A stretch of 64,000 nucleotides of DNA from Eubacteriales bacterium (GTDB lineage Bacteria > Bacillota > Clostridia > Oscillospirales > CAG-382), in contig JAZOCR010000143.1 in assembly GCA_045596605.1 (NCBI GenBank), positions 3,743 through 67,742 on the forward strand, in the 5' to 3' direction. The notes beneath the pieces were generated by a model. It did no database searches. It was not told the origin of the DNA and worked only from the letters and a program-made list of their open reading frames with translations. Made by a program: the position numbers and the translations under genes. Positions 12,517 to 62,871 of this stretch are shown here, in pieces. How positions within the stretch are numbered: position 1 is the first letter of the stretch; every line of letters begins with the position of its first letter.

Positions 12517-13779
12517 ATGGAAAGAAGCTATAAAAGTACGAAAATTGCCTGCTACATAGGGTATATGACCCAGGCAATAGTTATAAATCTTGCGCCGATA
12601 TTTTTCGTTATTTTCAGCGATGCATACGGCGTGGATAACGCAAGACTCGGAACTCTCGTGCTTGTAAATTTCCTTGTGCAGATACTTACAGACCTTGTTT
12701 CCGTAAAGCTTGTAAACAAAATAAACACCCGTCTCTGCGCCGTGCTTGCCCACGTGTTTTGCTTTGCGGGACTTATGCTTCTCGGAGTCTTGCCACTCCT
12801 TTTTGAAAATACCTACCTCGCACTTATGCTTTCCACCGTAATTTATTCGGTGGGCGGCGGACTTACCGAGGTTATTTTAAGTCCCATTATAGACGCTATC
12901 CCGATAAACGACGCCAATAACGGAAAAGCAAAAGCGGCAGCAATGAGCTTTCTTCATTCCTTCTACTGCTGGGGACAGGTGGCGGTTGTCCTTGTTTCCA
13001 CGCTTGCTCTGTACGTTATGGGCGATAATCTCTGGACGCTTATACCGATGTTCTGGTCGCTTGTGCCCCTTTGTAACGCAGTGAAATTTCTGTTTGTTCC
13101 GATACCTGCCTTTGTCAGCGAAAAGGAAAGAACACCCGTTAAAAAGGTTGTGTTTTCCCGCCTTTTTGCTTTGTCAGCGGTACTTATGATATGCGCAGGC
13201 GCATCTGAGCTTGCAGTGTCCCAGTGGGCGTCAATGCTTGCAGAAAAAGGACTCGGAGTTTCAAAGGTGGCAGGTGACCTGCTTGGTACCTGTGCTTTCG
13301 CTCTTTTTATGGGCGTAGGCAGAATACTTTACGGAATATTCGGTACAAGACTGCACCTTTCGAGAAGCCTGCTTTTTTGCGCAGGCACGTGCGTGCTGGG
13401 CTATCTTATGATAATACTGCCTAAAAATCCGGCACTTGCCCTTGCCGGATGCTCCGTATGTGGATTTTCCGTAAGCGTTATGTGGCCGGGAGTTCTCAGC
13501 CTTGCTTCAAGAGAGTTTCCGAGAAGCGGAGCTGTGCTCTTTAGCCTTCTTGCAGTGTGCGGAGATATAGGCTGCTCGCTTGGTCCTTGGCTTACCGGTA
13601 TAGCTTCCGGTGCTGCCGATACCAGGTGGCTTTCAGAAGCGGCAGTGTTTTCGGGGCTTGCCCCGGAGCAAATCGCACTCAAATGGGGACTTCTCGCAGC
13701 AGGCATTTTCCCACTTGTGATGATTTTTGCCGTGCTTGCGTTTATGAGAATGAGGAAAAAGAACAGATTAAAACAGTGA
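12517..13779 (+). CDS. MFS transporter
   Basis: About 12 predicted TM helices over 420 aa. ATG at 12517 lies 8 nt after GAGAGG. The track TTG at 12511 is less likely. Confidence 0.75.
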   Translation: MERSYKSTKIACYIGYMTQAIVINLAPIFFVIFSDAYGVDNARLGTLVLVNFLVQILTDLVSVKLVNKINTRLCAVLAHVFCFAGLMLLGVLPLLFENTYLALMLSTVIYSVGGGLTEVILSPIIDAIPINDANNGKAKAAAMSFLHSFYCWGQVAVVLVSTLALYVMGDNLWTLIPMFWSLVPLCNAVKFLFVPIPAFVSEKERTPVKKVVFSRLFALSAVLMICAGASELAVSQWASMLAEKGLGVSKVAGDLLGTCAFALFMGVGRILYGIFGTRLHLSRSLLFCAGTCVLGYLMIILPKNPALALAGCSVCGFSVSVMWPGVLSLASREFPRSGAVLFSLLAVCGDIGCSLGPWLTGIASGAADTRWLSEAAVFSGLAPEQIALKWGLLAAGIFPLVMIFAVLAFMRMRKKNRLKQ

Positions 13780-13799
13780 TAATGAAGTAAAAGTTTTAT

Positions 13800-14050
13800 A
13801 CGGCACGGAATATTTCCGTGCCGTATAATTTTTGATGGTATAAGGCTCTCCCTCTGGGAGAGCTGTCAGCGAAGCTGACTGAGAGGGGGGATTTCCCGAT
13901 GCCGAGAGCTGTCAACGAGACTTATTGAGAGGGGGTAATTCCCGATGCCAAGAGCTGTCAACGAGACTTATTGAGAGGGGGGGGATAACATTCAACTCCC
14001 TCTCCGACACGCCTCTCGGCGTGCCACCTCTCCCCAAGTGGAGAGGCGAA
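13800..14050 (+). repeat. Modular stem-loop repeat element, copy A (terminator + module A + 2x module B + module C)
   Basis: Terminator hairpin ACGGCACGGAA-TAT-TTCCGTGCCGT at 13800-13824. Module A has hairpins GCTCTCCC/GGGAGAGC (13845-13863) and GTCAGC/GCTGAC (13865-13879). A ~48-nt module B (..GAGAGCTGTCAACGAGACTTATTGAGAGGG) is tandemly duplicated, ending in a G8 run at 13977-13984. Module C has hairpins CACGCC/GGCGTG and CCTCTCC/GGAGAGG. Positions 13800-13889 are identical to 16733-16822. Confidence 0.85.
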
Positions 14051-14067
14051 TCCGCCACAACCGGTAG

Positions 14068-14568
14068 TCATGATTTGCCGAGGCTATTTGCAAGGTTGAT
14101 AATTTCTATCTTTTTTCTTTTGGCGTAGTCAAATGTTTTTGCCGCACCGCCGAATGAGTATTTTATGTAGCAGATTAAATAATCTGATTTATCAACCATA
14201 TATTGATTTGTCTTAATTATTTTTAGCCTTGGGGGAGTATTTAAAGGGATATTCGGTATAAATACTTCGTCAAACCATTTTAATTTTGAGTTGCCTATTT
14301 TGTTTTCCGCTTTGTTTAAATATGGAATTACAAGGTAAGCACGAAATTTATTACATTCTTCCTTTAATTCGTATATCGCTGTTGCTACTATGTTGTCAAA
14401 ATCTCCGTAATTGCCAACATAGCAATAAACTATATCGGCGGTCTGAGCAATGCTCCGAAGTGTTTCTTTGATTTGATTTTTTATTATATCGTTATCTTCT
14501 GAAATTTGAGAGTGTCCTGCGAAACAACAAGATTTTTTTGTAACTATATCTTTGCTTGAAATCATCAT
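14068..14568 (-). CDS. SLOG-superfamily DUF1273 protein (YpsA/YoqJ-like)
   Basis: The N-terminal CCFAGHS motif resembles the DUF1273 CFTGHR signature. About 166 aa. I place the start at the ATG-ATG at 14568 because a perfect TTGACA-17-TATAAT promoter (14597-14625) lies inside the longer track ORF. AGGAAAG RBS. Sampled lines are very AT-rich, about 20-35% GC. Confidence 0.7.
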   Translation of the reverse strand: MMISSKDIVTKKSCCFAGHSQISEDNDIIKNQIKETLRSIAQTADIVYCYVGNYGDFDNIVATAIYELKEECNKFRAYLVIPYLNKAENKIGNSKLKWFDEVFIPNIPLNTPPRLKIIKTNQYMVDKSDYLICYIKYSFGGAAKTFDYAKRKKIEIINLANSLGKS

Positions 14569-14596
14569 ACAATTGTTCTTTCCTGATTTTTTTACA

Positions 14597-14639
14597 ATTA
14601 TACTATACTTTTTGGCATATGTCAAGTGTTTAGAACACT
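14597..14639 (-). promoter_or_regulatory. Promoter of the SLOG gene with an overlapping palindromic operator candidate
   Basis: Reverse strand: TTGACA (14620-14625), 17-nt spacer, TATAAT (14597-14602). The palindrome AGTGTT-TAG-AACACT (14625-14639) abuts the -35. A third AACACT half-site (14677-14682) abuts the + strand -10 (TATAAT 14683-14688) of the XRE gene. Confidence 0.55.
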
Positions 14640-14719
14640 AATATAGAGATTAGCACCTATTATAATTTGTGATAAAAACACTTATAATAAGTTCAAATCA
14701 CAATAATAGTGAGGCAACT

Positions 14720-15079
14720 ATGAAACATAACGATGATTTTTATTACGCAATAGGTCAACGTATTAAAGAAGCGAGAATAAATAAGAAAATAACGCAGGAA
14801 GAGCTTGCCGTAATGGTTAACCTCGGAAGTGCACAGCAAATAAGCGTAATTGAAAGAGGACTTGGCGGTATGTCCCTTGAAAAATTTGCGCAGTTTTGTA
14901 AAGCACTCGACGTAGACGCAGAATATCTGCTGTTTGGCAATTCTTCAAGAGAAACGGCTACGCCTATCGGCAGATATCTTTCATCTATGACAAGCTCGCA
15001 GGCAAGGTGCGCAGAGGAGCTTATTGCTGTTTTTGCGAAGGCTCTCGATGAGGAAAATAAACTTCGGAGCGATAATTGA
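14720..15079 (+). CDS. XRE-family helix-turn-helix transcriptional regulator
   Basis: HTH_3 pattern IGQRIKEARINKKITQEELAVMVNLGSAQQISVIERG. ATG at 14720 after GTGAGG (14709-14714). Divergent from the SLOG gene. Confidence 0.8.
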   Translation: MKHNDDFYYAIGQRIKEARINKKITQEELAVMVNLGSAQQISVIERGLGGMSLEKFAQFCKALDVDAEYLLFGNSSRETATPIGRYLSSMTSSQARCAEELIAVFAKALDEENKLRSDN

Positions 15080-15104
15080 TATTACTTTAAAAACACGGAA
15101 AGCA

Positions 15105-15130
15105 AAAAGGGGCGAAATTCGCCCCTTTTT
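15105..15130 (+). terminator. Intrinsic terminator after the XRE gene
   Basis: AAAAGGGGCG (15105-15114) pairs with CGCCCCTTTT (15120-15129); T-run follows. Confidence 0.8.
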
Positions 15131-15166
15131 AATATATGCAGAATAATTGATTTGCATAAAAAAGTA

Positions 15167-15195
15167 TTGACACATAAATCTCCATATGCTAAAAT
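15167..15195 (+). promoter_or_regulatory. Sigma-A type promoter (TTGACA-17-TGcTAAAAT)
   Basis: TTGACA at 15167-15172, 17-nt spacer, TAAAAT at 15190-15195 preceded by TGC. Confidence 0.6.
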
Positions 15196-15239
15196 GAAAA
15201 TAGAAATAGCCCAAACGGCTATGAAGAAAGGAGACAATT

Positions 15240-16718
15240 ATGAAAAAACTCACATCAGTTATCCTCGCACTTGCACTTTTGCTCTCTGTCTTTTCCCTTA
15301 CCGCCACGGCAAAGAGTAGCAGCGTCAAGGTGCAGATTGCCCCCTTTTATACCCAGATAAACGACATCAGCATATATAATTCGGGGGTAAAATATCCGCT
15401 TATCCTGTATAAAGACGTGACGTATATCCCCGTGACATACTATCTTTCTATGGAATTGGGACTTGTTTCCGGATATGACAGTGATGAAGGCTTTTACATA
15501 GTGCGTGACCACTCTGGAGTTGATGAAACGCTTCTTCCCGAAAACCCCATTGACCTTTTCGGCGGATATGCCAAGAACAGCTACGGAAAGCAGTACGACG
15601 CAGTTATTCCCGACTATCCTGTGTACCTGAATGGCGTAAATCTTATGGAGAAAAACAGCCAGTATCCCGTTCTTAACTTCCGTAACGTTACCTATCTTCC
15701 GATGACCTATGAAATAGCAGTGGAGGAGTTGAATTTTAATCTGAAGTGGTCGGGCAAGGATTATTCCCTGTATATTGACAGCTACAACGGAATGAACGGC
15801 GGAATATACCTAACGGATATGTCAGAGGGACAGATGAATTTCCAGAAGCTCGTAACCGTTTACCGTGAATATCTGCACGATGAAAAGACCGGTGCAATGG
15901 GCTACGAAAGGCTTTACGACTATTACGCACAGTACACCTTTGACGCTGAAAAGGATGAGCTTTTGACTCTCGAAAACACAAGCGTGCCGCAGGAAATAAA
16001 ATATTATAACGCCACTGGTACTCTTGGAGCAACGGCGGTAAATATCGAAATCAGTGGCGGTAAGCTGTATTTTGACAAGCTTGAGCTATGCCCACTTCCC
16101 GACGGATATAATTCTGCTAAGGGTAAAAAATATACCGATGGCGAAAAGACTTTCGTTCTTGCAACTGCGTCAAATAATACTGTTCCATCACGGTATGTTC
16201 CCCGTAAAGAATTCCTTTTTGAGATAGATACCAATAAAGCAAAGCTCCTTTCACAGTTGGATAGTTCAAAAACTCTCTCCGGAATTTATAAAGGAGCAGA
16301 TGAAGCCTATTATATCAGCTTTAATTCTCTTTCGCCCTTTGGAAGTGCGAAATACGAAAACTATTTCTCGCTTGTTATGAAATATACCGCAGACGGCAGA
16401 CTTGTAAATATAGCTGAGGACTACGGCTTCGGAAGCCTCAGTGTTGTCGGCGCATATGACGGAAAGCTCTACGTTCGTGCTGTGAATTATTACAGCGCAA
16501 AAGATTCACTTGGACTTGAAAACTTTTCCTACGATCCGGTGCATAGTGGATATTACGTAATTGATACAAAGAATGGCGGAAAAATGTCGAGGCTTTATCC
16601 CTATATAAGCGGAGAACTGTTTGTAGGCTATGACGGCTCACTCTACTGCATTACCGACTACGCAAAAAATCAAAGGCTTGTAAACCTTAATACCGGAAAA
16701 ATGTACGAGTTTAAATAA
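15240..16718 (+). CDS. Secreted protein: N-terminal stalk-like repeats plus a C-terminal beta-propeller-like (DUF5050-like) region
   Basis: Signal peptide MKKLTSVILALALLLSVFSLTATA. A two-fold repeat of the YP(L/V)L..(K/R)(D/N)VTY(I/L)P(V/M)TY pattern recalls copper-amine-oxidase-N-like stalk domains. The C-terminus is rich in YY and GxLY strands. The family assignment is from memory. Confidence 0.6.
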   Translation: MKKLTSVILALALLLSVFSLTATAKSSSVKVQIAPFYTQINDISIYNSGVKYPLILYKDVTYIPVTYYLSMELGLVSGYDSDEGFYIVRDHSGVDETLLPENPIDLFGGYAKNSYGKQYDAVIPDYPVYLNGVNLMEKNSQYPVLNFRNVTYLPMTYEIAVEELNFNLKWSGKDYSLYIDSYNGMNGGIYLTDMSEGQMNFQKLVTVYREYLHDEKTGAMGYERLYDYYAQYTFDAEKDELLTLENTSVPQEIKYYNATGTLGATAVNIEISGGKLYFDKLELCPLPDGYNSAKGKKYTDGEKTFVLATASNNTVPSRYVPRKEFLFEIDTNKAKLLSQLDSSKTLSGIYKGADEAYYISFNSLSPFGSAKYENYFSLVMKYTADGRLVNIAEDYGFGSLSVVGAYDGKLYVRAVNYYSAKDSLGLENFSYDPVHSGYYVIDTKNGGKMSRLYPYISGELFVGYDGSLYCITDYAKNQRLVNLNTGKMYEFK

Positions 16719-16732
16719 GGCATAATAACGAC

Positions 16733-16866
16733 ACGGCACGGAATATTTCCGTGCCGTATAATTTTTGATGGTATAAGGCTCTCCCTCTGGGAGAGCTGTC
16801 AGCGAAGCTGACTGAGAGGGGGTAACTCCCGACGCCGATAGCTGTCAATGAGACTTATTGAGAGGG
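16733..16866 (+). repeat. Modular stem-loop repeat element, copy B (terminator + module A + 1x module B)
   Basis: Positions 16733-16822 match 13800-13889 at 90/90 nt. The next ~44 nt match module B of copy A with a few substitutions. Confidence 0.85.
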
Positions 16867-16957: not shown

Positions 16958-17170
16958 ATGATAAAAGAAAAAATAGACCGCATAAACCAGCTTGCAAAAA
17001 AATCAAAGACCCCCGAGGGACTTACAGATGCGGAGAGGGCAGAGCAAAAGGCACTCCGTGACGAGTATATCGCCGAATATCGTGCACAGTTTACCGGTAT
17101 CCTTGAAAACACCTATCTCCAAAGACCCGACGGCACCAAGGAAAAGATACAGAGAAAGGATAAAAAGTAA
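16958..17170 (+). CDS. DUF896 (UPF0291, YnzC-like) small protein
   Basis: The 70-aa sequence IDRINQLAKKSKTPEGLTDAERAEQKALRDEYI fits the DUF896 pattern. A TTGATT-17-TATACT promoter lies upstream. Confidence 0.8.
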   Translation: MIKEKIDRINQLAKKSKTPEGLTDAERAEQKALRDEYIAEYRAQFTGILENTYLQRPDGTKEKIQRKDKK

Positions 17171-28890: not shown

Positions 28891-28963
28891 ATGTTGTATA
28901 ATGAAAGCTGCCGGCATCGTAGGGGTAGCTTCCAAAAGCTTTAGCTTTGCACAGTGTCGCCAA

Positions 28964-29115
28964 GGCTCTCCCTCGGGGAGAGCTGTCAGCGAAGCTGACT
29001 GAGAGGGAATGACTCCCTCTGACGAGAGCTGCAAACGAGGCTGACTGAGAGGGGCGAAGCTCAACACCCTCTCCGACACGCCTTTTGGCGTGCCACCTCT
29101 CCCGTAGGGAGAGGC
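28964..29115 (+). repeat. Modular stem-loop repeat element, copy C (module A + variant module B + module C)
   Basis: GGCTCTCCCTCGGGGAGAGCTGTCAGCGAAGCTGACTGAGAGGG matches module A of copies A and B with one substitution. Module C (CCCTCTCCGACACGCC..GGCGTGCCACCTCTCC..GGAGAGGC) matches 13998-14047. Confidence 0.8.
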
Positions 29116-29276
29116 ATATATGGCTATCCATATAGGGAGGCTACAGATGGTGCTACATATGTTGTGGCAGGGAATTGACGCTGTGAAATTTTTTACAACT
29201 TTTTTGCAATATGTATGAGAAATATTTTGTACCTTGTATTAAAATAAGAGTATAAGAAACGTGGGGAGGTGCAGAA

Positions 29277-39049: not shown

Positions 39050-40063
39050 TTAATTTATTGGTTTGAGATTATATTCGCTTTCGCCGGCATATTCGTCCCA
39101 GCCATCTGTAGCAGGGTCGTAGTAAATGGTCGGCTCTCCGAAATAATTGCTTTCTTCAGTAAACTCGGGACAGTCACCTATAAAGCGAAGCTCGATTTGC
39201 CACGCAGGAGAAGCGCTCTTTACTGTAAACGGCAACGGAGAAAATTTGGTTACACCCTCCGGAATAACTATTTCAACGTCTGATGTTATACCAAAGAAAG
39301 CATAGCCGTCTATTTCTTCTCTGCCTTTGTCAAATATGATTTTTTCAAGGCTTGGATTGTCATAAAATCTCGCCTCATCAACCGCCATAAGATTAAGTGT
39401 GGCAGGAATGTTTACGGTTTTAAGAGAAGTACATAAGCCGAAAGCACCTGCGCCGATTTCTGTAAGGTTTTTCGGCAAAGTAATCTCCGAAAGCACTGAG
39501 CACTCATAAAAGGCTTTTTCTCCTATCTCGTTTAGAGTTTCCGGCAGTTTTATTTCTTCGAGAGTTGAACACTTTGTAAAGGCAAGACCGTCAATCTGTT
39601 CGATTTGTGTCGTTGAAATATCAAGCTCCCGGAGTTTTTCGCAGTCCTCAAAAGCACAACCGCCAATAATTGTCAAATTTGAATTTTCAGGAATTGTCAC
39701 GTCTTCAAGTTCTTTACAGCCTTTAAAAGCACAATAACCGATTGACTTTACCGAATCCGGAATTACGATACTTTTTATATTGCAGTTTTCAAATGCGCCC
39801 TCGTTTACTGCATCGGGTGAGCTTTCGTCTTTAGCCCCTTTTATTGCAGTTACGGGAATACCGTCAATTTTTGCCGGAATAACCACGTTTTCTGATGTAC
39901 CTACGTACTTGTTTATATAAATAAATTTTCCGCTTTCAGATACTTCGTATTGAAAATCGCTTGCAGGATTTTCTGCAAGTGTTTTGTCAGACTGAGTGTC
40001 ACACCCCACAAAAGACGAAATAGTCATTATAAGAGTCAAAAGTAAAGAAATAGCAGTTTTCAT
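39050..40063 (-). CDS. BspA-type leucine-rich-repeat lipoprotein (paralogue 1)
   Basis: Start at MKTAISLLLTLIMTISSFVGC (lipobox) after AAAGGAG. Repeats follow the pattern IP.SV..IG..AF..C..L. A 13-bp-stem terminator lies at 39006-39043. Confidence 0.8.
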   Translation of the reverse strand: MKTAISLLLTLIMTISSFVGCDTQSDKTLAENPASDFQYEVSESGKFIYINKYVGTSENVVIPAKIDGIPVTAIKGAKDESSPDAVNEGAFENCNIKSIVIPDSVKSIGYCAFKGCKELEDVTIPENSNLTIIGGCAFEDCEKLRELDISTTQIEQIDGLAFTKCSTLEEIKLPETLNEIGEKAFYECSVLSEITLPKNLTEIGAGAFGLCTSLKTVNIPATLNLMAVDEARFYDNPSLEKIIFDKGREEIDGYAFFGITSDVEIVIPEGVTKFSPLPFTVKSASPAWQIELRFIGDCPEFTEESNYFGEPTIYYDPATDGWDEYAGESEYNLKPIN

Positions 40064-40095
40064 AAATATGCTCCTTTCAGGTGAAGTGAATTTGC

Positions 40096-41019
40096 TTACC
40101 AAATCTCAGCCGGGAATCCGTTCCAAGTTGGCGAAGTAAAGCCCTCAGCGCCCTTGTGAAAATACACAGTGAAATCTGAGGTGTATTCTTTGGAGCTATC
40201 TCTAAATGCATCGTCTATGGTTTCCTTTCCAAAAAGAAATTCTTCCGGCGCATTTCCTTCAAATTTTACGGTCTTTAAACCGCAGTTTATAAATGAATAC
40301 TTGGATAGTGATTCTACTGTTTTTGGAATAACAATTTCTGACAACCTAAGATTATGTGCAAAAGCTGCGTGCTGAATGGTTTTCAAGCCTTCGTTTAGTA
40401 TTACTTTTTCTAAATCATAACATCCACAAAAAGCTTGCATTCCAATTTCTTCTACTGTACTGGGCAATACAACCTTTTTAAGATTTGTTTCATAAAAAGC
40501 CTCTGCCGGAATACACTTAACTCCCTCTTTTAGCTCAACAGTTTCAAGCCCTGAACAGGAAAAAACTGCCCAACTATCAGTATTTAAACAATCCGAAGGA
40601 ATGGTGACATGCTTCAATGAAGTACAATAAGAAAACGCTTCTGCACCTATTTCTGTCAGCGACTTCGGCAAAACTACCTTTTCAAGACTTGTGCAAGATT
40701 CAAATGCACTTCCGCCGATGGTTTTTAATGTTTCCGGCAAAGTTACAGAAACAGTAACGGAATCCGGAGTGTCAAGTATTCGAAAATCAGACAGCTCCGT
40801 TACCGGCTTTCCGTCAATTTCAGCAGGCACAACTACGTGCTCAAAATCACCGGAGTAGTGAGTTATTGTGATTCCACCGTCTTCATTTTCTGTGTATCCA
40901 AAGTATTCAAGCGGAGTTTCGGGTAAGTCTTTTATGTTGCCGGATGTTTTATCACCACAGCCAACAAAGGATGAAATAGTCATTATTAATGTCAAAAGTG
41001 AAGAAATAGTAGTTTTCAT
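40096..41019 (-). CDS. BspA-type leucine-rich-repeat lipoprotein (paralogue 2)
   Basis: The signal peptide MKTTISSLLTLIMTISSFVGC and the 5' UTR are almost identical to those of the downstream paralogue. Same LRR pattern. Confidence 0.8.
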   Translation of the reverse strand: MKTTISSLLTLIMTISSFVGCGDKTSGNIKDLPETPLEYFGYTENEDGGITITHYSGDFEHVVVPAEIDGKPVTELSDFRILDTPDSVTVSVTLPETLKTIGGSAFESCTSLEKVVLPKSLTEIGAEAFSYCTSLKHVTIPSDCLNTDSWAVFSCSGLETVELKEGVKCIPAEAFYETNLKKVVLPSTVEEIGMQAFCGCYDLEKVILNEGLKTIQHAAFAHNLRLSEIVIPKTVESLSKYSFINCGLKTVKFEGNAPEEFLFGKETIDDAFRDSSKEYTSDFTVYFHKGAEGFTSPTWNGFPAEIW

Positions 41020-41127
41020 AAATATACTCCTTCCAGGGGAAAAATATGGTTATCTCTTTGAAAAAAATTATCCTTATTATAATAATACAGAATTGCTTCC
41101 GGGAAATCCACATATAAAAGCTACGCG

Positions 41128-43231: not shown

Positions 43232-43232
43232 G

Positions 43233-43616
43233 TCTTGACCTGCCAGTAAGCCGTGTTCTGTATCTGGCAATCATCTATCTTGTCCTTACGTTACCGTAAG
43301 GCTCTGTGCCACTTGCGGCGAGCCGAGCAAGCTTTGCACCGGAACCGGTGCGTGCCACCTCGTGTTGCTTCGGATAGGGTTTACAGGAGTCCTGTGTTAC
43401 CATAGGACCCGGTGAGCTCTTACCTCGCCTTTCCACCCTTGGCTCTGCGAATGCTCGCTTTCATACCTCCATAAAGAAGTAGTAGCCGGTATATCTCTGT
43501 TGCACTCTCCCTGGGGTCACCCCCGGCGGACGTTATCCGTTATCCTGCTCTGTGAAGCACGGACTTTCCTCACTCAGACCAAAAAGGTCCTTTGCGCGAT
43601 TGCCTTGACAGGTCAG
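43233..43616 (-). ncRNA. rnpB: RNase P RNA
   Basis: The reverse strand contains GAGGAAAGTCCG, AGGGTGGAAAGGCGAGGTAAGAGCTCACCG, GTAAACCC, AGATAGATGATTGCC and ACAGAACACGGCTTAC in the canonical order. P1 pairs TGACCTGTCA (5' end) with TGGCAGGTCA (3' end). It has its own promoter and terminator. Confidence 0.92.
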
Positions 43617-60285: not shown

Positions 60286-61017
60286 TTAAAGGGGCTTCTT
60301 GACTATCTGAGCGTATCTTCTCGGATACTGCATCGGTGTGGATTTTACTTTCTTTATTACCACAAGAGAATGATGAAGCACCTCGCCGTCTGTGCTTTGC
60401 GGAAGCTCTACCTCATATGTCTTCACGTATTTTCCACCAAGCTTTGCAATTGCTCCCTTTGATATTTCAAGTTCCTCACTTGCACCGGTTGCCTTGTAGG
60501 CAATAAAGGCTCCTCCCACCTTTACAAAGGGAAGACAAAGCTCAAGCAGCACCGGCAGTGATGCTACCGCTCTTGAAACAGCAACATCAAAATTCTCACG
60601 GTACTTCTTGTCTGAGGATACCTCCTCTGCACGAACCGGAAGAAATTCGGCGTCTATTCCAAGCTTTTCGCAGGCACTCTGTGTGAATTTCAGCTTTTTA
60701 GCCGTGCTGTCAAGGAACGTGGTCTTTATGTCACGTCTTACGTGGGACAGCGGAAGTCCCGGAAAGCCGGCACCGCAGCCAACGTCTATTACCGATGCAC
60801 CACCCGGAATAAGGTAAAAAATCAGTGACGCAAGTGAGTCCGCAAAATGCTTTATCGCAACACCCTCATGCGTCTTTATTGCGGTAAGATTTGTGTGGGA
60901 GTTAAATTCCAGAAGAAGTTCACACAGCACACCAAAATCCGAAAGTGCACTCTCTGTAATACTTATGTTGTTTTTTTTGCAGAAATCCTGTAAAATAGTT
61001 ATAACCTCAGAGTTCAT
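60286..61017 (-). CDS. rsmG: 16S rRNA (guanine527-N7)-methyltransferase
   Basis: GidB pattern: NLTAI...HF.DSL and DVGCGAGFPGLPL. Confidence 0.92.
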   Translation of the reverse strand: MNSEVITILQDFCKKNNISITESALSDFGVLCELLLEFNSHTNLTAIKTHEGVAIKHFADSLASLIFYLIPGGASVIDVGCGAGFPGLPLSHVRRDIKTTFLDSTAKKLKFTQSACEKLGIDAEFLPVRAEEVSSDKKYRENFDVAVSRAVASLPVLLELCLPFVKVGGAFIAYKATGASEELEISKGAIAKLGGKYVKTYEVELPQSTDGEVLHHSLVVIKKVKSTPMQYPRRYAQIVKKPL

Positions 61018-61859
61018 TGTTTGCTCCGTTCTGCCACAGTGGCGAAAAATTTATAAAGGCGGTGGTTTACATTTTTGAAAGCTTACTTTGCGAATTTTTC
61101 AGTACCGAAAAAATAAAATATTATTCCTGCCTTGAGCTTTCCGACTGTGAGCTTATTTACCCAAGAAAGCTCCCGGACTTTACAAAAAGCGTCTGCTTTT
61201 TTCTTATTCCGTACTATGTGAAAGATGAGAAAAAAAGAAACGTTTCACTGTACGCCGTGCCCCGTGATTATCACCTTTACGTAAAAGAGCTTGAAAAGCG
61301 CCTTTTGAAGCTTATAAGTGATAAAAACGAAGGTGTTACAGTGCGTGTGTTTGCCGATAATTCCCCTTTTTCCGAACGCATCTGCGCAGAAAAAGCAGGG
61401 CTTGGTAAAATAGGCAAAAACAGACTTCTCATAAATTCCGAGTACGGAAGCTACGTGTTTATAGGGAGTATTTGCATTTCACATAATATCAGCATATCAC
61501 ACCTGGCGGAAAATTTCAAGTGTGACATATGTGGAAATTGTGAAAAGTGTAAGACAGCTTGCCCATATATGTCAGGAAAAAGCGAAATCTGCCTTTCCGA
61601 GCTTACACAGAAAAAGAAGTTTTCGGAAGATGAAACAAAAATTATTTCTTCTCTCGGCGTGCGCTGGGGCTGTGATATATGTCAACAGGTTTGCCCGCAA
61701 AACAACAATGTCAGCGAAACACCTATAGATTTTTTCAAAAATCACAGAATGCCTTTTGTGACAAAGGAGCTTATAGAGCAGATGTCCGATGATGATTTTT
61801 CACAGCGTGCATATGCGTGGCGTGGAAAAAACGTAATACTTAGAAATTTAAAGCTCTGA
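61017..61859 (+). CDS. QueG-like 4Fe-4S protein (epoxyqueuosine reductase family, short form)
   Basis: Two ferredoxin-type cluster motifs (CDICGNCEKCKTACP and CDICQQVCP). The true start is probably downstream of 61017 (for example GTG near 61062), because 61017 abuts the divergent rsmG start codon. Confidence 0.6.
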   Translation: MFAPFCHSGEKFIKAVVYIFESLLCEFFSTEKIKYYSCLELSDCELIYPRKLPDFTKSVCFFLIPYYVKDEKKRNVSLYAVPRDYHLYVKELEKRLLKLISDKNEGVTVRVFADNSPFSERICAEKAGLGKIGKNRLLINSEYGSYVFIGSICISHNISISHLAENFKCDICGNCEKCKTACPYMSGKSEICLSELTQKKKFSEDETKIISSLGVRWGCDICQQVCPQNNNVSETPIDFFKNHRMPFVTKELIEQMSDDDFSQRAYAWRGKNVILRNLKL

Positions 61860-61941
61860 TTTTCAATATTCGGCTCTTTTCGAGCGTGCAGATATGTTAT
61901 ACTCTCTTTTGAATTGTAATTTTTCAAAGGGGAGTATTTTT

Positions 61942-62871
61942 ATGGGGATAAACAGTAAATTCAAAATCAAATCAGGGCAAAAAAAGGACACACAAAAAAA
62001 CTGCACGGGAGAAATTTTTAATATTCCACCCTATCTTATCTGCCCAAGTCCGCTTCTTCCCAGAACGGATTTCTCTGATACCTCGCTTTGCAGTCTTGCA
62101 GACAGTATACGCAGATACGGCATGCTTCAACCTCTGTGTGTGTGTCTTTCAAAGGACGGAAAATACGAGCTTGTCGCAGGCGAAAGAAGACTTCGTGCGG
62201 CGCTTCTTCTGAAGCTTCCCACTGTCCCTTGTGTGCTTGTGGGAAGCTATGGAAAAGACGCAGAATATCTTTCTGTCATTGAAAATATTCAGCGTGAGGG
62301 GCTTAATATGTTTGACGAGGCAAAAGCCATAAAAAGACTGATGGAGAGAGATAAGATTTCCCAGGAACAGCTTGCGCTTATTTTGTCAAGCAGCACTGCG
62401 CAGATTGAAAAAAAGCTAAGGCTCACACAGTTTTCAAGAGCGGAAATGCAGGAGATTCTGCACCTTGGAATATCACCTGACATCGCTTCACTTTTTCTTG
62501 ACGTGCCCTGTTCTGTCCGTTATTATACCATAAAGCTTTGTACCGAAAAGGAACTGAACGAAAGCAGTATAAGAACTGTCTGCAAGAGGCTTTCAGAAAT
62601 AAAAAATCCTTCTCCCGATGACCTTGAAGAAATACTTTCAAAGGTTATCATAAAAAAGGAAGAGTCTTCTATAGAAGATACAGAGCAAAGTGAGAAAGCA
62701 GATATAAAAGAAAAAAGAACGCAGAAAATAGTGCTTCACGACCTTCGCTCCTTTGAGATTTCGCTGGAAAAATCCTGTGACGTGCTTCGCAGAGCAGGAC
62801 TCTATGCAGGCTTTGATAAGCAGGAGAATAACAGCGAAACGGTTTATACCGTCAGAGTCAAAAAAGAATAA
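61942..62871 (+). CDS. ParB/Noc-like protein (ParB N-terminal CTPase-fold domain + HTH)
   Basis: LQPLCV..YELVAGERRLRAA arginine-patch motif and ENIQREGLNMFDEA. ATG at 61942 lies 7 nt after AAGGGGAG. No ParA is adjacent. Confidence 0.8.
   Translation: MGINSKFKIKSGQKKDTQKNCTGEIFNIPPYLICPSPLLPRTDFSDTSLCSLADSIRRYGMLQPLCVCLSKDGKYELVAGERRLRAALLLKLPTVPCVLVGSYGKDAEYLSVIENIQREGLNMFDEAKAIKRLMERDKISQEQLALILSSSTAQIEKKLRLTQFSRAEMQEILHLGISPDIASLFLDVPCSVRYYTIKLCTEKELNESSIRTVCKRLSEIKNPSPDDLEEILSKVIIKKEESSIEDTEQSEKADIKEKRTQKIVLHDLRSFEISLEKSCDVLRRAGLYAGFDKQENNSETVYTVRVKKE

Follow-up and report, generated by a model that had tools for sequence, protein, structure and literature searches.

Gene content of the locus

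We analysed a 64,000-nucleotide (nt) stretch of contig JAZOCR010000143.1 from an uncultured Clostridia lineage (assembly GCA_045596605.1, Eubacteriales bacterium), hereafter called the window, in which two copies of a direct repeat lie 2.9 kb apart, one downstream of an MFS transporter gene and the other downstream of a gene for a 492-amino-acid (aa) secreted protein. The copies bracket three genes, which are those named in an earlier reading made from the sequence only: a SLOG/YpsA-like gene on the minus strand, followed on the plus strand by an XRE helix-turn-helix (HTH) regulator and the 492-aa signal-peptide protein (Table 1). That reading had also remarked on the lack of an integrase or transposase, and Pfam finds none among the three genes. 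No integrase, transposase, Y1/HUH enzyme, REP-associated tyrosine transposase (RAYT) or other recombinase is present among the 59 open reading frames (ORFs) of the window.

The SLOG protein scores 24.9 bits against Pfam YpsA, below the cut-off of 27.7; precomputed annotation places PF06908 on it and on most of its 239 relatives, two of which are named 'DUF1273 family protein'. The 492-aa protein matches no Pfam, NCBIfam or PADLOC family. No PADLOC defence-system model matches the SLOG or 492-aa proteins, and the XRE protein matches generic HTH models only. A near-perfect promoter had been proposed for each of the three genes, which is borne out for the SLOG gene and for the 492-aa gene (TTGACA-17-TAAAAT with TG, 11/12) but not for the XRE gene, for which the promoter scan lists no plus-strand site of at least 9/12 in the SLOG–XRE spacer.

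Table 1 Features of the repeat-bracketed locus and of the third repeat array, in window coordinates
Feature	Position	Strand	Description
MFS transporter gene	12517..13779	+	Pfam MFS_1, E 6.5e-20; last gene of the conserved DUF1385-PrmC-MFS block
Module copy 1	13800..13933	+	Terminator hairpin 13800-13824 and T-tract, 18-nt spacer, REP units 1 and 2
Forward REP array, site 1	13843..13982	+	Canonical unit 13843-13889; degenerate 46-nt units 13890-13935 and 13936-13982; nhmmer E 1e-12 to 4e-12
Inverted REP unit, site 1	13996..14056	-	Double hairpin; nhmmer E 2.4e-6; DNA fold -14.6 kcal/mol, z -3.9
SLOG/YpsA-like (DUF1273) gene	14068..14568	-	AT-rich
SLOG promoter, consensus sigma-70-type	14597..14625	-	TTGACA-17-TATAAT, 12/12 in promoter scan
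XRE-family HTH regulator gene	14720..15079	+	Pfam HTH_19 / HTH_3; divergent from the SLOG gene
492-aa secreted protein gene	15240..16718	+	Signal peptide MKKLTSVILALALLLSVFSLTATA; promoter 15167-15195
Module copy 2	16733..16866	+	Terminator hairpin 16733-16757 and T-tract, spacer, canonical unit 16776-16822, degenerate unit 16823-16866
DUF896 gene	16958..17170	+	Pfam DUF896; first gene of the DUF896-MurI-hyp-S41-GyrA-like block
Third REP array	28963..29117	+	Two forward units and one inverted unit

The repeat copies are terminators joined to a dispersed repeat family

The 90-nt repeat at the heart of the earlier reading is exactly as described: positions 13800-13889 and 16733-16822 agree at 90/90, and the perfect run is exactly 90 nt long, with differing bases to its left. 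The roughly 44 further nt that had been called near-identical match at 38/44, extending the ungapped match to 13933/16866 at 128/134, and all six differences between the copies fall within these last 44 nt of the 134-nt match. With only five repeat families of at least 30 nt in the whole 64 kb, a 90-nt match goes far beyond what chance would produce, and the repeat is genuine.

Rather than being anonymous non-coding DNA, the repeat consists of an intrinsic terminator and a local copy of a dispersed family that resembles repetitive extragenic palindromic (REP) sequences and bacterial interspersed mosaic elements (BIMEs). Both copies open at the first base of the terminator stem and contain the spacer and the first REP unit. 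The terminator hairpin, ACGGCACGGAA-TAT-TTCCGTGCCGT, has an 11-bp stem followed by the T-tract ATAATTTTT and folds as DNA at -13.6 kcal/mol (z -7.5); an 18-nt spacer separates it from an array of units of ~46 nt. The first, canonical unit, AGGCTCTCCCTCTGGGAGAGCTGTCAGCGAAGCTGACTGAGAGGG, forms a pair of adjoining hairpins, with stems of 8 bp and 6 bp, and then a G-rich tail; the degenerate unit does not fold into two hairpins. At site 1, the tandem array has a period of 46 nt with 2.7 copies and 88% matches in Tandem Repeats Finder, and the RNA fold z-score is -7.5 for the whole site-1 element and -6.2 at site 2.

Searched with a profile of the units (nhmmer), the 64 kb yields nine units in three intergenic arrays and nothing else. 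Two of the three arrays, at sites 1 and 3, contain an inverted partner, and site 2 is without an inverted unit. The inverted unit at site 1 adjoins the 3′ end of the SLOG gene, forms with the forward units an inverted arrangement like that of BIMEs or REP doublets forming hairpins (REPINs), and is kept in a sister species (110/122). The third array is preceded by a different terminator and separates a class II aminoacyl-tRNA synthetase gene, upstream, from an AraC-type regulator.

The bracketed genes are shared with a sister species

The full context of the locus is available for one close relative, the sister species GCA_052846195.1. Its contig L010 carries rny-DUF1385-PrmC-MFS-SLOG(-)-XRE-492aa and ends 112 nt after the 492-aa gene, inside the REP core; contig L002, also from this assembly, opens with the same core, overlapping L010 by 23 nt, and then runs into DUF896-MurI. 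Between sister and window, aa identity is 98% for rny, 90% for DUF1385, 87% for PrmC and 83% for MFS on the left flank; 88% for SLOG, 98% for XRE and 87% for the 492-aa protein in the three-gene block; and 100% for DUF896, 82% for MurI and 70% for hyp230 on the right flank. The corresponding nt identities are 85.0% (left flank), 88.0% (three-gene block) and 79.2% (right flank). The same gene order and flank-like divergence in the sister indicate that the three genes have descended along with their flanks from a time before the two lineages diverged, as vertically inherited chromosomal genes rather than as a recently acquired cassette.

These comparisons bear directly on the proposal that the SLOG–XRE–secreted-protein segment entered recently, and can leave again, as a non-autonomous cassette through homologous recombination of the two repeat copies, with MFS-repeat-DUF896 as the ancestral order. 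In its favour, the 134-nt direct repeats are 96% identical and in the right orientation for deletion, which would be mechanistically possible by recombination between them. In the sister, however, the same three genes occupy the same place between repeats that have diverged, and an MFS gene next to DUF896 (an empty site) was found in none of six other genomes (L003-L007 and L148), very few of the relatives sampled being close ones. These six retain DUF1385-PrmC-MFS, an order also kept in L010, followed by unrelated genes, with an ATP synthase operon in L148; the variable gene order downstream of MFS among such more distant relatives is itself a point for an insertion. We consider a recent insertion improbable. 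The synteny comparison suggested by the sequence-only reading thus gives no MFS-DUF896 arrangement with a single repeat and, in the one fully readable relative, the same genes between diverged repeats, an outcome that the reading itself had named as refuting its proposal.

The context was taken from homologues, since searches for exact copies of the MFS, SLOG and 492-aa proteins of the window, and of P0001, returned no contigs. An exact look-up of DUF896 returned only two contigs, both beginning within the repeat, and a scan of genome contigs for MFS returned only relatives at most 64% identical, with unrelated downstream genes. The DUF896-MurI-hyp-S41-GyrA-like synteny was seen in L001, L002, L014 and L015. 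In L014/L015, a 34%-identical homologue of the 492-aa protein is encoded two genes upstream of DUF896-MurI-hyp-S41-GyrA; such linkage in a distant relative hints that the 492-aa gene belongs to the right-hand block, with orthology uncertain in that homologues of 38-40% identity sit in other contexts. The divergent SLOG–XRE pair also occurs in an unrelated context in GCA_054284465.1 (L149 9619-10486), which can be counted in favour of an insertion, and may represent a conserved two-gene module. With the pair and the 492-aa homologue found in separate contexts, the three genes do not act as one unit.

Base composition, the other argument for an insert, deviates over a narrower interval than had been reported. 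GC content falls to 29-32% over ~14100-14850, an interval limited to SLOG and the region of the divergent promoters. Among the window's 59 ORFs, which average 43.2% GC (standard deviation 3.8), none has a lower value than SLOG (32.3%), a point in favour of an insertion, but the XRE gene (41.9%), described earlier as AT-rich too, and the 492-aa gene (42.7%) are ordinary in composition. The deviation does not extend across the whole three-gene element, with SLOG alone deviating. The predicted discontinuity is therefore present, but it concerns one gene and is equally found in the sister species, where SLOG has 32.9% GC. SLOG alone, with its XRE partner, looks like an older acquisition. An older version of the insertion could be that an event before the species split created the duplication and hence the origin of the two paralogous repeats.

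Perfect identity points to probable gene conversion between old paralogues

The sister species has a homologous terminator and REP module at both positions, and the duplication is therefore older than the species split. The sister's two modules show 81 matches in 90 aligned columns plus 17 indel positions, and their terminator loops and spacers differ. Orthologous intergenic DNA of window and sister is 74-95% identical (pooled 860/989 = 87%), so that paralogues older than the split would be expected to show ~12/90 differences, with a chance of ~0.87^90 = ~4e-6 of showing none. Because zero differences in 90 nt is this improbable, a recent homogenising event is required. The earlier statement that the perfect identity implies recent duplication or gene conversion holds, with gene conversion the better supported.

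The distribution of spacer variants supports gene conversion. In the window, both sites have variant A (TTTTTGATGGTATAAGG), of which the sister's site 1 has a slightly different version; variant B (TTTTGCTTATATAAGGAGCAGAGCAAGG) occurs at the sister's site 2 and at site 1 of L011, a third lineage with 88% nt identity to the window. Such a mosaic would be expected from repeated ectopic gene conversion in both directions. Unit number differs as well: site 1 comprises three forward units plus an inverted one in the window, against one of each in the sister, and site 2 has two units in the window and one in the sister. Within a strain that is 98.7% identical to the window overall (L001), the second unit at site 2 (16823-16866 in the window, compared with L001 28-74) shows 4/74 differences, above the genome average, and matches the window's site-1 unit instead, a further hint of either exchange between sites or fast array evolution. 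Together, these comparisons indicate that the arrays are dynamic and fast-evolving.

We consider it likely that the copies owe their identity to recent intrachromosomal gene conversion between old paralogous terminator and REP modules that flank vertically inherited genes. The MFS and 492-aa genes each end in the same kind of module, made of an intrinsic terminator hairpin and a REP/BIME-like double-hairpin array, and the two modules are old paralogues, in place at both positions before the split from the sister species. In the window lineage, one module would then recently have overwritten the other by non-reciprocal homologous recombination, that is, by intrachromosomal gene conversion. The putative conversion tract of ~90 nt would run from the first base of the terminator stem, where homology starts, to the end of the first REP unit; older differences would persist in the next 44 nt, beyond the tract. 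We infer gene conversion as the homogenising mechanism, together with its direction, from patterns across three lineages.

Several points weigh against this account. Full context comes from one close relative only, and the contigs of L011 and L001 end or begin within the repeat. L011 is possibly a chimeric short-read contig joined at the shared terminator, which would remove one of the two proposed conversions, and the sister's right junction rests on a 23-nt overlap of two contig ends. Conversion is read from sequence patterns rather than observed. The initial duplication of the terminator and REP module is unexplained, an ancient Campbell-type insertion being one possible origin. Finally, perfect identity could in principle be produced by mis-mapping of reads during assembly polishing.

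This last possibility amounts to a distinct explanation, in which the modules are truly ~90% alike, as in the sister, and were homogenised by mis-mapped reads. The source is a metagenome-type contig of 68,713 nt, and related assemblies break exactly at these repeats, which shows that the repeats are hard to assemble. Against this, the identity stops sharply and is followed by six differences in 44 nt, which would be unusual for mis-mapped reads of 100-150 nt, and intact unique sequence, orthologous to that of the sister, lies on either side. We judge an artefact to be quite improbable. It is very improbable that the module was recently copied to its second site by transposition of a mobile terminator and REP element resembling a miniature inverted-repeat transposable element: the REP family is extremely widespread, is dispersed within the window as three arrays in 64 kb and forms composite arrays with inverted ends (GGCTCTCCC... 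/ ...GGAGAGGC at sites 1 and 3, site 2 being without an inverted end), but the sister already has the homologous module at both sites, no target-site or other flanking duplication is evident, the window holds no transposase, and the third array is without this terminator, which is therefore not part of a mobile unit.

The repeat family extends well beyond the window

The units share a 28-nt core, GAGCTGTCAGC[A/G]AAGCTGACTGAGAGGG (GAGCTGTCAGCGAAGCTGACTGAGAGGG in the window), which lies at 13860-13887, 16793-16820 and 28980-29007. Exact matches to the core (loci L017-L147) occur in at least 120 metagenome contigs, with GC contents of 44-72% among the matches listed, and in 11 IMG/VR viral contigs; among the matches listed, the metagenomes are from human gut, rumen, and soil or rhizosphere samples. 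Some 25 of the listed contigs represent one Bifidobacterium longum locus, whose neighbouring glucose-6-phosphate isomerase is exactly WP_053496030.1 and where the unit lies in the intergenic region downstream of pgi. Carriers of the double-hairpin unit thus include Clostridia and Bifidobacterium longum as well as high-GC soil bacteria and phages. Of the 45 unique instances at the metagenome loci, 32 fall outside ORFs as crudely called, and no orientation preference is evident, upstream genes being codirectional in 17 instances and opposite in 12.

Both hairpins of the unit vary in sequence and retain their stems. Across 100 distinct upstream contexts, the hairpin before the core changes in sequence while its arms stay complementary, with the arm pairs GCTCCCCC...GGGGGAGC and GCTCTCCC...GGGAGAGC about equally common. 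In a set of 75 distinct 45-nt units, all fetched through the exact core, 91.9% of cells pair, compared with 28-52% when the partner is slid, and 37 cells are changed on both sides, compared with 10.7 ± 2.3 in shuffles (0/500); the pair 7-17, for example, is C-G in 40 sequences and U-A in 23. Other sequences of hairpin 2 also keep the stem (GTCGCC-GCA-GGCGAC, GTCGGC-GAA-GCCGAC and GGCGGC-GTTCA-GCCGCC), and stems of at least 5 bp are found in 70% of the hairpin-2 variants, as against 0.5% of shuffles.

We tried and rejected three other identities for the repeat. An RNA-regulatory role in the 3′ untranslated region does not suit units that lie after terminators and show no orientation preference, and a DNA-level element is favoured over an RNA regulator for these same reasons. 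The attC and CRISPR readings fail for want of a GTTRRRY-type site and of unique spacers; the tandem period of 46 reflects repeat units only. Rfam has no family for the repeat at gathering or permissive thresholds, the best match in 13700-14150 being the serC leader at 22.9 bits against a threshold of 35. Literature searches with the core sequence, on either strand, and with its sub-strings matched nothing relevant, and BLAST of the composite element against annotated plasmids and phages returned short, unannotated matches only. The family appears to be widespread and, as far as the Rfam and literature searches go, undescribed.

Two further observations concern the family. In another genus (L005 11260-11480), an MFS gene likewise precedes a repeat that is built in the same way but from another sequence, GGCTTCCCC-TTGA-GGGGAAGC TGTCGAGCAAGGCGAGAC TGATGAGGTG and then an inverted partner, which suggests species-specific variants of one superfamily. 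In addition, four independent short-read contig edges from related strains fall in the repeat core (the end of L010, the starts of L002 and L001, and the end of L011). The repeat family systematically fragments short-read assemblies, and contig ends in these organisms mark repeat positions.

Other features of the window

A palindrome, AGTGTT-TAG-AACACT (14625-14639), overlaps the -35 element of the SLOG promoter, and a further AACACT half-site (14677-14682) lies upstream of the XRE start; these may be candidate operators through which the XRE regulator controls the divergent pair. A small number of Clostridia plasmids or chromids, and one gut phage record, encode relatives of SLOG–XRE with ~30% identity. 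Elsewhere in the window, a tandem gene duplication accounts for an 86-nt direct repeat (40000-40085 and 40956-41041, 86% identity), which coincides with the 5′ ends of two neighbouring BspA-type leucine-rich-repeat paralogues on the minus strand (39050-40102 and 40096-41019). The window's sole match at Rfam gathering score is a bacterial RNase P class A RNA gene (43232-43615, minus strand, 228.7 bits). At 60286-62871, rsmG (GidB) adjoins a ParB-family gene, which suggests that the window lies near the chromosomal replication origin. Up to 35 kb, the plus strand carries most of the genes, and cumulative GC skew is rising.

Discussion

Concerted evolution and ectopic gene conversion are known for rRNA operons, tuf genes and REP-type repeats. 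The present case shares with them that paralogues within a genome are more alike than orthologues between genomes and that variants are mosaic between sites. Unlike in the rRNA operons and tuf genes, the homology here is very short (~134 nt at a distance of 2.9 kb) and lies in a terminator and a repeat unit, not in a gene. Homologous stretches of about 130 nt, separated by 2.9 kb, would thus be enough for detectable ectopic conversion in this uncultured Clostridia lineage. Gene conversion is an ordinary process, and the case would add one more example to a known kind; as a lead, the repeat family is of greater interest.

The locus also resembles islets and integrative elements flanked by att sites, in that a multi-gene segment lies between direct repeats and one of its genes deviates in GC. 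Unlike such elements, it has no integrase and no tRNA target, two of its three genes have normal composition, and the segment has co-diverged with the rest of the locus in the sister, where the repeats have diverged too. A perfect repeat bracketing genes with one AT-rich member can therefore mimic a mobile insert where, as proposed here, the cause is concerted evolution of terminator and repeat modules. Before an island is called, by program or by reader, it is worth asking if the repeats on either side are members of a dispersed family and if the same arrangement exists in relatives.

With the REP, BIME and REPIN sequences of Enterobacteria and Pseudomonas, the family shares short hairpin-forming extragenic units, mostly after the 3′ ends of genes, that are dispersed singly, in tandem or as inverted pairs and whose stems are kept by compensatory changes. 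RAYT proteins, which mobilise REPINs, are typically encoded in a single copy per genome; the 64-kb window, a part of the genome, holds no RAYT gene. The unit differs in form. A REP is a single imperfect palindrome with a conserved 5′ GT[AG]G, whereas the present unit, about 45 nt long, forms a double hairpin with the G-rich tail TGAGAGGG, beginning GGCTC... with no GTAG/GTGG head. The architecture of REP, BIME and REPIN elements (PMC3116915, PMC2817692) is similar to the arrangement of the present family. The classical REP classes are lineage-specific (PMC3686654, PMC3116915), unlike the core found here, which is shared across phyla.

The core centre, GTCAGCGAAGCTGAC, contains GCGAAGC, the sequence of an extraordinarily stable DNA mini-hairpin (PMC13037366), and variant units mostly keep triloops of the G-N-A type closed by C-G. 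The literature on d(GCGAAGC) concerns the physical chemistry of the motif, and we found no link in it to the present repeat family. The core centre suggests recognition in single-stranded DNA, and the family may spread at the DNA level, through single-strand hairpins. We tentatively raise the further possibility, which we do not rate as probable, that the double-hairpin unit (variable hairpin 1, TGTCAGCGAAGCTGAC, TGAGAGGG) is an undescribed family spreading horizontally across phyla, its core recognised in single-stranded DNA by a putative HUH-type or other enzyme, and that local gene conversion is a side effect of its presence. Whatever its mode of spread, a 28-nt core that is conserved to the base across contigs of 44-72% GC, Bifidobacterium longum and phages included, among the matches listed, and whose two stems covary, sets this family apart from lineage-specific REPs and merits a dedicated census.

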